Sequence record: OR594180
DNA: 45,233 nt
Source: Escherichia phage vB_EcoM_SHAK7693
Reading direction: 5' to 3' (one strand)
Shown here: one piece after another, positions 17,626-45,233 of the stretch
How the letters are laid out: each line of letters begins with the position of its first letter
Position numbering within the stretch: the stretch's first letter is position 1
Notes under the pieces: model-generated
Database searches by the model: none
What the model was told of the DNA's origin: nothing
Seen by the model: only the letters and a program-made list of their open reading frames with translations
Translations under genes and position numbers: made by a program

Positions 17626-18276
17626 CTAACTACCCTCTTTTATCAAGGCGATAACGCGGTCGAACATACCTTCCCTTATCGCCTCTATCTCACATCTTCT
17701 TGATTCCGCCGCCCTTATCTTTTCAGCAATGTAAGCATCTAGCGCTTCTTCCTGAGTTTCAAAACGTCCTAGATTAATAGTTTTTTTATCACAGCTCACT
17801 GAGGCTTTAAATTTACCTCTAGATTCTTCATAAAAAACACCTGTAGGTGTTCCACTATTTTTCTTCTCCTTTAGGAAAACATTCAACCATTTCGGGATGA
17901 AAATGCAAGTGGTAGGGCTGTATACCTTATTAATACCAGAGAATATGTCCTTATCTAGCTCCCATCCCTCCACATAATTACAAAGCCACCATCTACGGAA
18001 GGACATAAACCTTTGCCACCCATGCCACACAGTTACATCCCTGTACGCAGGCCTTTTGTTTTTATACTCGGCGTCCACGCAACGTTGGATCATCCCTCGC
18101 CATGTAGCGTACGCCAGACACGTCTCACGGCTGCCGTTTATCTTAGGGCTAACCACATAATCGGCGTCATTTATGCCAAAACCACATATAGTTGCACGCT
18201 TAGTTTTGCTGCTTTTGTTCGCAGGATAATTCGCACGCAGCCACATGCTCTTGGCTACTTTTTCGGTTGGCATCAT
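17626..18276 (-). CDS. homing endonuclease-like protein with C-terminal AP2-like DNA-binding domain
   Basis: C-terminal KFKASV...INLGRFETQEEALDAYIAEKIRA resembles AP2 domain; RBS AGGAG before ATG 18276; catalytic motif not recognised. Confidence 0.45.
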   Translation of the reverse strand: MMPTEKVAKSMWLRANYPANKSSKTKRATICGFGINDADYVVSPKINGSRETCLAYATWRGMIQRCVDAEYKNKRPAYRDVTVWHGWQRFMSFRRWWLCNYVEGWELDKDIFSGINKVYSPTTCIFIPKWLNVFLKEKKNSGTPTGVFYEESRGKFKASVSCDKKTINLGRFETQEEALDAYIAEKIRAAESRRCEIEAIREGMFDRVIALIKEGS

Positions 18277-18311
18277 GTTAGTATCTCCTAAACTAATAGG
18301 AGTATCTTGCC

Positions 18312-19697
18312 ATGTCTTCTTTGAAATTTCCAGCAAGTTTAAAGCCAGTGGTATCGAAAGGCTACTCAATGACCAGACGCAACAACGTCTGGAGCGTCGA
18401 TTTAGCCGGTGGCGGGGTGCGTCAGGGGCGTGACACGTATTACGACGTGTTTCCGATAAGCGTAACCCTGATTACATCTGCACTAGGGCGGCAGGCGTTC
18501 CTGTCGTTCCTCGAAAAAGTCGATGGTGGTGCGTCAAGTTTCTGGATGGCGCACGACTTCGGCATGGGCATCGAGGATTATCAGGTAACAATCACGTCAA
18601 CCATCGCCGAGTCCACAGAAGATGGGATTAACTGGACAATCACTTTCACAGCAACCGCCGAGAAATCCCCGTTCCAGAACCTCGAGAATCAGTGCCTGAT
18701 TAACAATCTGCCAGATTTGTATGGTTGCTACGGGGATTGTCTGGGTAGTTTCCTGAAAATATACGCGAACTATGAGACTACGTTCCCGCGCATCTGGAGC
18801 GATGAAGGGCCCGCAGGATACCCGCCGATTAACCTTCTGGCGTCCGCCCTGGATAGCCGCATTGTGTACGACGGGCCGCAGGTTTATTACATCAACCGCA
18901 ACGGCAATCTTGTGCAATCAGCCACTAATGAATGGCCCCTAACATTTATTGATGGTGTTGCCGTTGGGCGTGTGCCGCCGGAGGTTGGTGGTCTAAACCT
19001 ACTAAAAATGTCAGAGGACTTATCGGATCCCGTATGGGCGAAAACAAGGACTACTGTTACCTACGGCGGAACGGGCGCATCCAAACTAGTCCCAACAACA
19101 ACCACTGGTACTCATCACGTTTTACAATTGATAACCCCGGAAGCATCTACGGCATACACCTATTCTGTTTTTGTGAAAGCAAATGGGTACAATAATGCTC
19201 TTGTTCAGATCGGAGTATTTGCTAGTCAGGTGGCAAGTAATCCTGTTTATGTAGACCTATCTACGGGGGTGATAACATCAGCTAATGACTATTCAAGATG
19301 CGGTATAATAGCAGTAGGTGATGGCTGGTTTAGAGTATGGGTGCGAGTTATTACTAATTCCTCCCCGACAAGTATAAACGCGTCTGTGTGGGCCTCTGAC
19401 GCTGCTAACAACACGTCTTTCCCAGGTGATGGTGTTAGTGCTATATCAGTTTTTGGCGCCCAAATGGAGAAATCTAATAATTCATCGTCGTATGTTAAAA
19501 CCGAAGAAAATTTAGTTACACGCCCCGCGGCATCGGCAAAAGTAGCCATGAATGGTGCGACAAGCATCGACATTACATACTCTGATGGTTCCACCGTAAA
19601 CGTGCCCGCAGTAGATAACTACGCCACCATCCCCCAAGCGGATTCGGCGTGGGGTAGTAAATATATCACCCGTATTGATTTTAATGTGGACGGTTAA
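18312..19697 (+). CDS. minor/distal tail protein
   Basis: First tail gene after tape measure; 461 aa. Confidence 0.5.
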   Translation: MSSLKFPASLKPVVSKGYSMTRRNNVWSVDLAGGGVRQGRDTYYDVFPISVTLITSALGRQAFLSFLEKVDGGASSFWMAHDFGMGIEDYQVTITSTIAESTEDGINWTITFTATAEKSPFQNLENQCLINNLPDLYGCYGDCLGSFLKIYANYETTFPRIWSDEGPAGYPPINLLASALDSRIVYDGPQVYYINRNGNLVQSATNEWPLTFIDGVAVGRVPPEVGGLNLLKMSEDLSDPVWAKTRTTVTYGGTGASKLVPTTTTGTHHVLQLITPEASTAYTYSVFVKANGYNNALVQIGVFASQVASNPVYVDLSTGVITSANDYSRCGIIAVGDGWFRVWVRVITNSSPTSINASVWASDAANNTSFPGDGVSAISVFGAQMEKSNNSSSYVKTEENLVTRPAASAKVAMNGATSIDITYSDGSTVNVPAVDNYATIPQADSAWGSKYITRIDFNVDG

Positions 19698-25781: not shown

Positions 25782-27202
25782 TTCTTACCTCGTCTCTTCA
25801 TGTAATTAAGCAATTCTTCCTGGACCGATTTCTTCTCGTCGGTACGCGCGGCAACAACCTCATCCAGCGTGTCTCGGGCTATTATTTGATAAATGAATAC
25901 AGACCTTTTGTATCCAGATTGCATCTGCCTTACCGGACCTATGCGCTCGATAACCTGCAGATAATGTTCCAGGTTCCATCCCTGACTCATAAAAGCCATG
26001 TGGTGTCCGCCGTGTTGTAGCGACAGCCCGTGACCCGCAGAGGCCGGGTGTATTAGGAGCATAGGTATCTCGCCACGGTTCCACGCTTCCATCTGCTTAT
26101 TACCCTTAGCGCCTTTGGCAAACGCCTGGGCTTGAGGGAATCGCTTAAGGATACGTTCCAGTTCGTGCTTGAACTGATAGGCCACCAGTAACGGTGCCCC
26201 CTGTAACTCCTCAACAATGGACTCGAGCGCATCCAGTTTCGTATCGTGCACTTTCTCCCAGTCTTTGGTTGCTTCTCCGTCTGGCCCCGATACATATACA
26301 GCGCCGGATGCAATCTGTAGGCACTTCGACGTCTTCGCGGCAGCGTTAGCCGCTTCAACTTCTCCGCTCTCCAGTTCCGCGAATAACTTTTCCTCCATAT
26401 CGATGTACGCCTGACGCGCCTTCTTCGGCAGGTCAATTTCCACTGGCACGATAATCGGCGCTTCGCAACCAAACCACTCGGCGGCGTCAACCGTGAGACT
26501 AATGTCTTTCATCTTCTGATGAATCTCATTATCCGCACCCGGTCGTGCGTGATACTCCCGCGCCATCGCGGATTTCCCTTTCTGTACCGAGTTAAACCAG
26601 CGGTCTGTGAATGCCGTGTACGAAGAACCAAGGCGCTCGCCAGCGTCGATAAACCAGTTCTGCCCCCACAAGTCCTTGAGGCCGTTCGGCGACGGTGTGC
26701 CTGTCAGGTTAATGAAACGCTTAACCTTTCCGAACGCCACTTTGCTTAGCGCCTTAGCCCGTTTGCTTCCTCCAGAACGGCTACGGAAAGATTTCAGCTT
26801 CGTGCTCTCATCAGCAACGATAACCGTAAAAGGCCAGTCGTCTTTGCCGTAGTAGTCAATCAGCCACTCGATAACTTCGTAGTTTGTGCACACCACGTTA
26901 GCATCTGACTCCAGCGCCGCGATACGGCGCTTCTCTGAACCGGTTGCGTCTACGACACTCAGACAGGGGAAGTTCCAACGTGCCTGTTCCGCGGGCCACG
27001 TACCTGACGCAACACGTAAAGGAGCCAGAATTAACACTCGGTCGTCGTCATTAAGTTGCCCATTACGGAACAGCCGATTGAGAACCCACAACGTTGACCC
27101 CGACTTACCGCTGCCCATGCTCGCCCAGATATTGCAGCGATGGTGCCGCAGCATGAACGAAGTCATGAGCTTCTGGTATTCGCGCCTTTGAAACTTACTC
27201 AT
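25778..27202 (-). CDS. SNF2-family helicase
   Basis: Walker A GSGKS, DEST box, LTGTP, C-terminal helicase motif GHGLSLQ. Confidence 0.8.
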   Translation of the reverse strand: MSKFQRREYQKLMTSFMLRHHRCNIWASMGSGKSGSTLWVLNRLFRNGQLNDDDRVLILAPLRVASGTWPAEQARWNFPCLSVVDATGSEKRRIAALESDANVVCTNYEVIEWLIDYYGKDDWPFTVIVADESTKLKSFRSRSGGSKRAKALSKVAFGKVKRFINLTGTPSPNGLKDLWGQNWFIDAGERLGSSYTAFTDRWFNSVQKGKSAMAREYHARPGADNEIHQKMKDISLTVDAAEWFGCEAPIIVPVEIDLPKKARQAYIDMEEKLFAELESGEVEAANAAAKTSKCLQIASGAVYVSGPDGEATKDWEKVHDTKLDALESIVEELQGAPLLVAYQFKHELERILKRFPQAQAFAKGAKGNKQMEAWNRGEIPMLLIHPASAGHGLSLQHGGHHMAFMSQGWNLEHYLQVIERIGPVRQMQSGYKRSVFIYQIIARDTLDEVVAARTDEKKSVQEELLNYMKRRGKK

Positions 27203-28061
27203 TTACCGCCCCCATGAATGCCTTTATAAATTCAGCGGCTACTTGCGGGACGATGGCATTGCCATAACCGCGCAATCGTCCCACTCTGGCGGGTATCCCA
27301 TTAGCCAGCGGGAATGCGCCGGGTTCAACTGGCCTGAATTTTCCATCCCGGCATCCGAGCCAGTCAGTATCTGACCAGAAGCCGTGATGCGGATTGGTTG
27401 TGTTATTTTCAGACCCTGCTCCGTCGAGTAGTCCAGCCTGTCGAATGTTCTGTCTTTTCCGTCCTTGCGAATAACTGTCTCTCCGCTCCCTCTGTAATCG
27501 TTCGCTGTTGGGGTCGGCCATGCCAAAAGGTATTGTGCGTGCGTCGCCAGATTGCAATTCGCATTCGGTCTGTTGAAGCGTTTTTCCGCGTAGGCTTGTG
27601 GGTCTTTCGCTCTGCTGTTGTTGTCGTCCGCAACCGCTGGCGTCGGCCAGGTTGTGCGCGCCGAAGAACAGTCTGTCGCGTTTGTGCGGTGCGCCGACGC
27701 TACAAGCTGGGAGTACGGCAAACCCGACGGCGTAGTCTTCTCCTTCCAGGTGAGTTTGTAAATCGCACATCCACGATTTTGCAATTGCTGGCGCAACCTG
27801 CTCCCCAAAGAGGACTGGAGGTCGGCACTCGCTGATAAGGTCGAGGAACACAGGTGCGAGGTGTCTCTGGTCGAACTGTCCGAGTTGCTTTCCCGCCGCG
27901 CTAAACGGTTGGCAAGGCGGGCTTCCCGTCCAGAGAGGCGCATCTTCCGGAACTCCCGCAAGTCTGAGCGCGAGAGGCCAGCCGCCGATACCAGCGAAAA
28001 AAATGACACTGGGTGAACCCGTCAAGGTCTTCTGGCTTAACTTCGGTAATGCTTCTTTCAT
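27195..28061 (-). CDS. DNA (cytosine-5)-methyltransferase-like protein
   Basis: Motifs FAGIGG (I), PPCQPFS (IV), GEQV (VI), KRDRLFF (VIII), GNAIVP (X); motif I to IV spacing unusually short. Confidence 0.6.
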   Translation of the reverse strand: MKEALPKLSQKTLTGSPSVIFFAGIGGWPLALRLAGVPEDAPLWTGSPPCQPFSAAGKQLGQFDQRHLAPVFLDLISECRPPVLFGEQVAPAIAKSWMCDLQTHLEGEDYAVGFAVLPACSVGAPHKRDRLFFGAHNLADASGCGRQQQQSERPTSLRGKTLQQTECELQSGDARTIPFGMADPNSERLQRERRDSYSQGRKRQNIRQAGLLDGAGSENNTTNPHHGFWSDTDWLGCRDGKFRPVEPGAFPLANGIPARVGRLRGYGNAIVPQVAAEFIKAFMGAVNE

Positions 28062-28149
28062 CTACAACTCCAAAAGGTATGTGACCCTGCTTTATTAATT
28101 CACGCAGCCACGCTGCCGCGCTTTTATCCCATTCATTGTAGTAATTCAT
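27901..28149 (-). CDS. ORF overlapping 5' end of methyltransferase in another frame
   Basis: ATGA-coupled to upstream gene; N-terminus carries NEWDK-like motif; A7/T7 tract at 27997-28003 at frame junction. Confidence 0.3.
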   Translation of the reverse strand: MNYYNEWDKSAAAWLRELIKQGHIPFGVVDERSITEVKPEDLDGFTQCHFFRWYRRLASRAQTCGSSGRCASLDGKPALPTV

Positions 28150-42456: not shown

Positions 42457-42953
42457 TGGCTTACATTTCTGCGCCGCGTTCGAGGGATTCCGCGGAATTG
42501 CGTATCGTGCTACGCCGAATGAGAAGTACCTGACTATTGGGTACGGTCACTATGGGCCGGACGTAACACCAGGTAAGACCATCACCCCTGGCCAAGGCCT
42601 CCTGTTACTGAATCGCGATAGGCCAAGGCCTCCTGTTACTGAATCGCGATATGGCTAAGGCCGTAGCTGCGGTTGATGCAGCAGCACACCATTCGCTGAC
42701 ACAGGCGCAGTTCGACGCCGTGTGTGACCTGGTCTATAACGCCGGTGCAGGTGTGATTGCAGCTACTACTGGCACGGGTAAGGCGCTGCGTTCCGGTGAT
42801 GTTGCGACGCTACGGGCTAAACTGGCGCTGTTTATCAACCAGAACGGCAAACCGCTACTCGGCTTGCGCCGTCGTACAGCGGGTCGTCTGGCGCTGTACG
42901 ACGGTAAACCATGGCGGGAGGCAGAGGCTATTGGGCGCGCGGTGAAAGGTTGA
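42419..42953 (+). pseudogene. endolysin (GH24 lysozyme) interrupted by a 31-bp tandem duplication
   Basis: N-terminal ORF has EG..AY...TIGYGH; C-terminal ORF has QFDAV..L.YN.G lysozyme motifs; frames differ by +1 at duplication. Confidence 0.7.
42590..42651. repeat. perfect 31-bp tandem direct duplication
   Basis: GGCCAAGGCCTCCTGTTACTGAATCGCGATA at 42590-42620 and again at 42621-42651. Confidence 0.9.
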
Positions 42954-43017: not shown

Positions 43018-43052
43018 CTCCCGGCCCTGACCCAGCCGGGATTTTTTTTTAT
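43018..43052 (+). terminator. rho-independent terminator after lysis cassette
   Basis: CCGGC...GCCGGG stem followed by T9. Confidence 0.6.
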
Positions 43053-44598: not shown

Positions 44599-44691
44599 TA
44601 CATCCTGCCTAATCCCCTTATATAATCCCTTTAGACGCGTAGGGCGCGTCTGGTGCGCTCTGATGGTCAGACGCATATGCAAGGGGGTTCT

Positions 44692-45233
44692 ATGAAGCTG
44701 AAACTTAAGCGGCCATCGCCAGAGGTGGTGCAAGCTGCGCATGAAGAAGCTGTTAGCGCAAACCGTCGCCGTAAACGACCGCGCGGTAAACAGAGTCTTT
44801 ATCAATCATCCCGTAATTCCGCCGCGCTGTGGGACCCGGACTATTGCGACGCGTTAATCGAGTTCTTCGACCGCACGTCTTGGGAGCTTGTGCCTACGTC
44901 CAAGGGTGACGAACGCCCGCTGATTCAGGATAAGCCCCCGTCACTGGCCCGCTTCGCCTTACACATCGGCGTAACTATCCCTATTATTAAGCTGTGGTTG
45001 CGTGAGATTCCGGCGTTTGCAGAAGCCTATGAAACCGCTCAGGCGCTGGAAGAGGCGTATTTCACTGAGACAGGCGCTGCCGGTATCTCCGCTACGTTTG
45101 CTGCGGTTAAGCTGGGCTTAAGCAAAGAGAAACCTGTTGAATCCTCCGAAGAAACTGCGCCGACTGAGATTGTGTTCACCGTAGCGGAGCCGGTAGGTAA
45201 AATCGTTACCACGAACATGGGTGAGGTAGGGGA
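44692..45233 (+). CDS. putative terminase small subunit (3'-truncated by window end)
   Basis: RBS AAGGGGG; HTH-like ARFALHIGVTIPIIKLWLREIPAF; last gene before terL assuming a circularly permuted genome. Confidence 0.45.
   Translation, partial: MKLKLKRPSPEVVQAAHEEAVSANRRRKRPRGKQSLYQSSRNSAALWDPDYCDALIEFFDRTSWELVPTSKGDERPLIQDKPPSLARFALHIGVTIPIIKLWLREIPAFAEAYETAQALEEAYFTETGAAGISATFAAVKLGLSKEKPVESSEETAPTEIVFTVAEPVGKIVTTNMGEVG

Follow-up and report, generated by a model that had tools for sequence, protein, structure and literature searches.

Does the minus strand of Escherichia phage vB_EcoM_SHAK7693 (sequence record OR594180) carry a small gene of its own beside a C5 DNA methyltransferase gene, or are the two overlapping open reading frames (ORFs) found there the pieces of one interrupted gene? 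The window that we analyzed is the whole stretch of 45,233 nucleotides (nt), which is the complete, terminase-first genome of a Kagunavirus (a Guernseyvirinae siphovirus of E. coli). An 82-residue ORF and a 288-residue ORF in another frame meet there at a run of seven Ts. A preliminary description had reported the ATGA coupling of the smaller ORF to its upstream gene and an overlap of about 160 nt with the methyltransferase ORF, both of which we found as described, the two ORFs having 161 nt in common. The two ORFs are the two halves of a single C5 methyltransferase split at the T-run. Very probably, an unprogrammed +1 insertion or a base-calling error has split the gene and switched the enzyme off. 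The locus is laid out as follows:

28149..27901, minus strand: 82-residue ORF, the ATG of which overlaps the TGA of an upstream 63-residue gene

28061..27195, minus strand: 288-residue ORF in a frame other than that of the 82-residue ORF; its stop overlaps the start of the helicase gene

28146..28149, minus strand: ATGA, in which the stop of the upstream 63-residue gene and the methylase start overlap and are coupled, likewise annotated in phages Ivi and Golestan

27997..28149, minus strand: first 51 codons, native to the C5 methyltransferase (alpha, frame f0), MNYYNEWDKSAAAWLRELIKQGHIPFGVVDERSITEVKPEDLDGFTQCHFF, assigned by phrog_363, tblastn, and the M.HhaI alignment

27997..28003, minus strand: T7 homopolymer (A7 on the plus strand), the frameshift site; T6 in relatives, where CAT TTT TTC encodes His-Phe-Phe ahead of motif I

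27901..27996, minus strand: out-of-frame tail of the 82-residue ORF, 31 codons and a stop in the −1 frame of the methylase, non-native, with no profile match

27195..27996, minus strand: methyltransferase body (frame f0), assigned by PF00145 (58.2 bits), phrog_363 (59-317), and the alignment to M.HhaI 74-168

The evidence for a single gene comes from the adjoining positions of the two ORFs on one protein family. Residues 1-51 of the 82-residue ORF align to positions 10-60 of the phrog_363 profile (DNA methyltransferase), and residues 21-287 of the 288-residue ORF align to positions 59-317. Because these coordinates are adjacent and the join falls on a homopolymer, the arrangement is more than chance. 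When the Ivi methylase was placed on the window by tblastn, its residues 1-51 fell in frame −3 with 98% identity and the rest in frame −1, the two parts meeting at 27997; almost all Ivi proteins were placed on the window in one frame each. Deleting one T from the run yields ...QCHFFAGIGGW..., exactly the reading found in the relatives, which bears out the earlier proposal that one T fewer in the A7/T7 run at 27997-28003 would fuse the frames.

The methyltransferase body carries motifs I (FAGIGGW), IV (GSPPCQPFS), VI (FGEQV), VIII (PHKRDRLFF), and X (GYGNAIVPQV). The 288-residue ORF scores 58.2 bits against PF00145, for which the cut-off is 22, and an intact relative scores 60.1 bits. The TIGR00675 score of 35.9 lies under the cut-off of 100.65, and we therefore assign the protein to the superfamily only (PF00145/dcm). 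The methylase frame does not run uninterrupted through the window, as it breaks at 27997-28003, and the frame used by the tail of the 82-residue ORF holds only short ORFs in the relatives. The annotation should accordingly record one disrupted methyltransferase gene (or correct it, if the reads have T6), rather than a small hypothetical protein followed by a truncated methylase.

Alignment to related methyltransferases, which the preliminary description had proposed as a check, pointed the same way: together with the phrog_363 coordinates, the relatives directly show one gene split at the T-run. The 1.3 kb round the methylase locus are 93-97% identical in DNA sequence to those of phages K1G, K1H, K1ind1-3, Golestan, Ivi, and 536P11. 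Ivi, K1ind2, K1ind3, and Golestan each have a single annotated coding sequence (CDS) of 309-317 residues starting from the ATGA-coupled ATG, and these four phages and 536P11 carry T6 in an alignment that is otherwise collinear with the window. Across a 91-nt query spanning the tract, all matching GenBank phage records (52/52) are one base shorter than the window. The same T6 is found in 20 IMG/VR contigs and two Logan contigs, with an intact ORF of 274-317 residues from the ATGA-coupled ATG. In the Logan contig SRR36242477_8232, the 3′ ~900 nt of the methylase gene are those of the window except for one T, the ORF pair is intact, and the helicase is identical. The window thus carries one T more than an intact natural allele and shows no secondary lesions, and the change is therefore either very recent or an artefact. 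A split layout as the normal state was found in none of the homologues compared, and exact-sequence look-ups of the 288- and 82-residue products returned no second assembly with the T7 allele.

The run itself is not a shared property of the family. Among 62 homologous loci with 42-95% protein identity, CAT TTT TTC is restricted to the Kagunavirus clade and a few others; distant homologues encode His-Phe-Phe as CAC TTC TTC, CAT TTC TTC, or CAC TTC TTT, with T-runs of 2-3. The T-tract thus appears to be a lineage-specific codon choice and not a conserved slip site.

What could have lengthened the run? A T6 tract would have been turned into T7 by a recent, unprogrammed +1 insertion through replication slippage or, in the sequence record only, by a homopolymer base-calling error, and we give the two roughly equal odds. 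In favor of a real mutation, a +1 change at the same tract was found in two other IMG/VR Kagunavirus contigs, UViG_3300045988_013548 (T7) and UViG_3300045988_021324 (T8), which differ in nearby single-nucleotide polymorphisms and have all other examined genes intact. Moreover, among the 12 runs of at least six bases in the window, no second homopolymer indel breaks a gene. In favor of an error, the T7 allele is unique among cultured isolates, and that both additional contigs come from one metagenome (3300045988) speaks for an artefact.

A different kind of lesion lies in the endolysin gene, where an exact 31-nt tandem duplication at 42590-42651 on the plus strand (GGCCAAGGCCTCCTGTTACTGAATCGCGATA twice) breaks the gene into ORFs of 91 and 100 residues. 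This second gene-breaking lesion, one that a viable phage should not tolerate, counts toward error. The relatives have a single copy of the 31-nt unit; imperfect 10-nt direct repeats (GGCCAAGGCC / GGCTAAGGCC) stand on either side of it at a spacing of 31 nt, and a real slippage duplication is therefore equally possible as an assembly or rotation artefact. Such an artefact would be an untrimmed contig overlap (k=31) left when the genome was rotated to begin with the terminase gene. The only further homopolymer length difference seen is a T9 run at 43042-43050 on the plus strand, in or beside a 38-residue hypothetical ORF, where Kagunavirus 536P11 has T8.

The consequence for the enzyme depends on which motifs the first 51 codons carry. 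The family profile aligned to M.HhaI with E=1e-12, matching family residues 35-65 to M.HhaI 2-32 (motif I) and residues 72-162 to M.HhaI 74-168 (motifs IV-VIII); FAGIGGW, GSPPCQPFS, FGEQV, and PHKRDRLFF were assigned to motifs I, IV, VI, and VIII by this alignment. Ahead of motif I, family residues 3-11 (YYNEWDKGA; YYNEWDKSA in the window) correspond to M.HhaI 37-45 (YSNEWDKYA), which is motif II. The preliminary description had seen in the N-terminus of the 82-residue ORF the motif that follows motif I in canonical enzymes, a resemblance that this match confirms, if weakly when taken alone (−2.3 bits). The motif order in the methylase family is thus permuted to II-(III)-I-IV. Motif III probably also lies ahead of motif I, judging by position, and the displacement of motifs II and III accounts for the mere ~20 residues between motif I (FAGIGG) and motif IV (PPCQ), a short spacing already noticed in the preliminary description.

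In M.HhaI, motif II (NEWDK) contacts S-adenosylmethionine. Ribosomes starting from 28149 on the T7 message would stop after 51 native residues and 31 junk residues. Only from the internal ATG at 28061 would the methylase body be reachable, giving a 288-residue product without motif II and probably without motif III. Because the lost 51-residue segment carries motif II and probably motif III, the enzyme is most likely off; the 288-residue product, we infer, would most likely be unable to bind the cofactor properly. A T7 phage is predicted to lack C5 methylation, which would affect its host range on restricting strains.

Several points weigh against an inactivated enzyme or an undirected insertion. 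The loss of activity is deduced from the motif content alone, and the NEWDK/motif II alignment is short and non-significant alone. C5 methylases tolerate splitting and fragment complementation (PMC3404938), and the 82- and 288-residue products could conceivably reassemble. As for the direction of the change, all three variant genomes carry +1 and none −1 (3/3 and 0/3), which is not significant with three cases but leaves room for selection of the allele.

The split could instead be the working state, as the preliminary description had suggested in proposing slippage-dependent expression. Full-length methylase would then arise from T7 in part of the transcripts or of the translation events, either because RNA polymerase slips and leaves U6 in the mRNA or because tRNA-Phe shifts by +1 on the ribosome at U UUU UUU. 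A perfect homopolymer does permit tRNA-Phe to re-pair in the +1 frame, the +1 allele occurs in three independent genomes, and low expression might suffice for an enzyme. Yet no relative with an intact gene has T7, ~60 distinct genomes combine T6 with a single ORF, and no relative is normally split. Neither the tract nor the two-frame layout is conserved in distant homologues, in which the T-run is absent, and the codon following the tract is CGC, neither a slow nor a stop codon that could drive a +1 shift. Documented cases of efficient transcriptional slippage in bacteria involve nine or more residues, and seven is short. We consider programmed slippage very unlikely and the earlier suggestion not sustained. 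The same three independent +1 alleles at one tract, in genomes otherwise intact, could also speak for a contingency (phase-variable) switch, in which T6/T7 would toggle the methylase at a useful rate so that the population would be covered both against hosts that restrict cytosine-methylated DNA (McrBC/McrA type) and against hosts with restriction enzymes that are blocked by methylation. The window allele differs from an intact natural allele by one T, and the tract results from synonymous codon choice, CAT TTT TTC being present in 40 Kagunavirus loci, several of which are the same contig again or duplicate records. Against such a switch, shared descent alone could explain the shared codons, a tract of 6-7 nt is short compared with known contingency loci, and only ~3 of 60 genomes vary, two of them from metagenome 3300045988. 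A contingency locus is thus unlikely.

There is also the possibility that both genes are genuine, 28149..27901 being a conserved small gene and 28061 the natural start of the methylase. The ATG at 28061 indeed has a good GGAG Shine-Dalgarno sequence and is conserved in the relatives. In these relatives, however, it opens a nested ORF in the +1 frame and not the methylase, a point that the preliminary description had missed: the conserved ATG stands, its role as the methylase start does not. The last 31 residues of the 82-residue ORF match nothing, and all relatives have the fused ORF. No homologue with a separate small gene or with a methylase starting from 28061, the finding that the preliminary description had named as decisive against a split gene, turned up among those compared; each has a single ORF of 274-317 residues. 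Two genuine genes are extremely unlikely. What the T-run shows is a frameshift or miscall of the ordinary homopolymer kind, affecting a known accessory gene; it is not a programmed device, and its interest lies in the nested frame that it exposes.

The nested ORF is defined by three further features:

28068..28071, minus strand: GGAG Shine-Dalgarno sequence, 6 nt upstream of the nested (f1) ATG, within methylase codons Gly27-Val28 and present in all Kagunavirus loci

28004..28061, minus strand: putative start ATG (28061-28059) and first ~19 codons of the nested ORF, called "Mte8-like protein" in K1 phages; CDS in K1ind2/3 at the same offset of 88

27239..27996, minus strand: body of the nested ORF in the third frame of the window, assigned by phrog_1008 and by the ORF-length and synonymous-site tests

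In the window, the third-frame ORF (28009..27239, 256 residues) matches phrog_1008 with E=8e-56. Its conserved features are SLGSRL..GCAIYKLTWKEKTTPSG..ASAHRT, two WPTP..D modules, and QLNPAHSRWLMGYPPEWDDC, and its nested-frame peptides include LTWKEK, TFDRLDYSTEQGLK, and WLMGYPPEWDDCAVMAMPSSR. The protein forms a large family of its own for which there is no Pfam model: it has 5429 relatives in a collection clustered at 90%, and at 50% identity the number of cluster representatives is 10364. No Pfam domain is on record for any of the top 120 relatives, and a Pfam scan of 50 representatives returned one weak PF00145 match, two fusions to neighbouring domains, and nothing else. By tblastn, the nested frame was located beneath the annotated cytosine-methylase genes of 242 cultured phages, the hosts of which include Escherichia, Klebsiella, Rhodobacter, Salmonella (including epsilon15), Burkholderia, Xanthomonas, Pseudomonas, and others.

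In essentially all of ~55 full-length loci, down to 42% identity, the +1 frame is open from approximately methylase codon 20-35 to ~15 codons before the methylase stop, and the +2 frame in the same loci holds ORFs of only 37-96 codons. We compared these lengths with 300 synonymous-codon shuffles within each of 37 genes, keeping the methylase protein and codon usage. The longest +1 ORF spans 203-424 codons, compared with 80-228 expected from the shuffles (P≤0.007 in 36 of the 37 genes), and in most genes none of the 300 shuffles reached the observed length; stops in the +2 frame are as numerous as expected. The variability of synonymous sites follows the same pattern. Entropy at the third codon positions of the methylase, calculated from sequences that are phylogenetically non-independent, is 1.2-1.47 bits over residues 1-100, 0.9-1.1 over residues 110-160, and 0.62 at the nested RWLMGYPPEW block, rising back to 1.14-1.39 as soon as the nested stop is passed. 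Within the WPTP block and the RWLMGYPPEW block, it is the third position of the nested frame that varies most. These observations indicate a second ORF lying wholly inside the methylase ORF and kept open by selection, with a product that seems to be under purifying selection.

The nested ORF also appears to have its own translation start. In Kagunavirus, the start signal is ttttGGAGttgtagATG at offset 88 (ATG 28061 in the window), and many distant homologues have AGGAGcattgcagATG at offset 106, where AGGAG precedes the ATG by 7-8 nt. The methylase codons in the start region are skewed in keeping with these signals: Arg32 is AGR in 37/46 compared with 39% overall, and Asp30 is GAT in 40/46. With T6, both ORFs would be intact, the tract sitting in the doubly coding zone. 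With T7, the nested Shine-Dalgarno sequence, the ATG, and the first ~20 codons would be joined to the methylase body, producing the 288-residue ORF, and the nested body would be cut from its own start, leaving an in-frame ATG at 27943-27941. What looks like a 288-residue methylase with its start at 28061 is a two-gene chimera made by the indel, which swaps the N-termini of the nested ORFs.

The two frames compete in annotation. In Logan and JGI assemblies, gene callers pick the nested frame in place of an intact methylase frame. Escherichia phage ST20 (MF153391.1, 16613-18008) has T6, yet no methylase is annotated there, just a 217-residue nested-frame "hypothetical protein" (P0106); its methylase gene may be disrupted elsewhere or mis-annotated. 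In some metagenomic relatives (P0141 and P0135), the nested-frame protein is continuous with a Dam N6-adenine methylase domain (PF05869) or a DUF2800/PD-(D/E)XK nuclease domain, with no change of frame. They are possibly natural fusions, which would imply translation of the nested frame.

As for the wider context, the window begins exactly on the ATG of the terminase large-subunit gene (1-1248) and finishes within the small-subunit gene (44653-45228). These two ends identify it as the whole genome rotated to the terminase-first convention and not as a random slice. On the minus strand, the methylase locus is bordered by the genes for DNA polymerase and VRR-NUC and the 63-residue gene on one side and by the SNF2 helicase gene on the other. 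Elsewhere, the tape-measure gene and the next tail gene enclose a 247-residue ORF on the opposite strand (17626-18369, minus strand), which is absent at that place in Ivi. The ORF bears a weak likeness to the HNH endonuclease of the phage itself (39% over 51 residues), has A8 and T7 runs close to its 3′ end, and is probably an inserted homing endonuclease.

What would a protein nested in a methyltransferase gene do? C5 methylases consist of a large domain, which holds motifs I-VIII as well as X, and a small one that comprises the variable region and motif IX (PMC3404938). The methylase frame is conserved over motifs II-I-IV-VIII and the C-terminal CRDGKxRP...GYGNAIVPQVA, and it is indel-rich and poorly conserved in between; the interval between motifs VIII and X gave no profile match, and neither a variable-region fold nor a motif IX can be recognised in the methylase frame. 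In the nested frame, the first ~75 residues are free of constraint, and conservation falls exactly on this in-between region, in the blocks SL.SRL...GS..Y.LTWK...TP.G....L.AS.RT, 0-5 WPTP..D modules, and LNPxxSRWLMGYPxxW. We therefore considered a division of labour — in which the large catalytic domain (motifs II-III-I, IV-VIII, and X, joined by an unconstrained linker) would come from the annotated frame, and the +1 ORF would make a beta-like protein, the variable, DNA-recognising small domain with the WPTP..D repeats and the motif-IX-like LNPxxSRWLMGYPxxW. Such a nested two-protein layout across this very large family of phage and prophage C5 methylases seems to us somewhat more probable than its opposite. 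On this model, the added T would not abolish either frame altogether but would exchange the N-termini of the two proteins.

The motif-IX-like string LNPAHSRWLMGYPPEW in the +1 frame resembles motif IX of M.HhaI, LHPRECARVMGYPDSY, by eye and with no statistical support. An hhalign comparison of the nested protein with M.HhaI (the M.HhaI sequence used agreeing with the segments of the family-profile alignment) gave no motif IX alignment, and the nested-protein profile and a 48-residue C-terminal query gave nothing meaningful against PDB sequences. AlphaFold2 modeling of the nested protein from a 58-sequence alignment reached a mean predicted local distance difference test (pLDDT) score of 51.5, with only residues ~80-125, a helix and a β-hairpin, modeled confidently; the methylase frame (51 sequences) reached 39.5, and both models are too poor to use. 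A double frameshift restoring the canonical single chain was also tried. The hybrid, consisting of methylase-frame residues 1-165, the nested-frame variable region with the motif-IX-like string, and the methylase-frame motif X, scored 60.3 compared with 60.1 bits against PF00145, which is no gain. We rejected this candidate also because each frame stays open where the other is conserved, which would be needless for a shifting ribosome.

The region between motifs VIII and X (27400-27650, minus strand; alignment columns 545-690) differs sharply among otherwise near-identical Kagunavirus genomes, with indels that sum to multiples of three. This variation suggests that target specificity turns over rapidly. 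If the nested protein is the DNA-recognition subunit, thousands of phage methylases are having their specificity predicted from the wrong chain, changes that look silent in the methylase frame may shift the target specificity, and any indel in the shared region, such as the extra T, would affect two proteins at once. A described overlapping gene in phage C5 methylases was not found in the literature searched, which does not prove that none has been published, and "Mte8" received a passing mention only.

The closest comparison is with the "C-specific methylase" of the Kagunavirus phages K1G, K1H, K1ind1-3, Golestan, and Ivi (phrog_363), which is the same gene at the same locus with the same ATGA coupling; they have T6 and one ORF of 274-317 residues, whereas the window has T7 and a split gene. 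Compared with the canonical monomeric M.HhaI, motifs I, IV, VI, and VIII align and NEWDK is exactly M.HhaI motif II, but the order is I-II-III-IV there and II-(III)-I-IV here. M.AquI is a natural two-polypeptide C5 methylase, illustrating that the fold tolerates separation of the large and small domains (PMC3404938). Unlike the nested frames proposed here, its two subunits divide the fold in the variable region and follow each other along it, the first with I-VIII and the second with IX-X (PMC3404938).

The nearest precedent for a nested layout is M.EcoHK31I, compared here by its published description. Inside the gene of its alpha chain, a different frame encodes the whole of the beta chain (Lee, Kam and Shaw 1995, via PMC2836561 and PMC3404938). 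The alpha chain carries motifs I-VIII along with X, the beta chain carries motif IX, and the first 42 beta residues are dispensable (PMC2836561; PMC3404938). As in M.EcoHK31I, the nested ORF described here lies in another frame with a putative internal start of its own, and the large product carries motifs I-VIII and X. The dispensable N-terminal part of the beta chain has its counterpart in the unconstrained N-terminal part of the nested protein. The extent differs: on the beta chain of M.EcoHK31I only motif IX is said to reside, whereas the nested ORF here falls little short of the gene in length, and what is conserved in it also spans the whole variable region with the WPTP..D repeats. We infer that the locus, a candidate for this type, may work like M.EcoHK31I; if so, M.EcoHK31I, a single curiosity of 1995, would become a common design.

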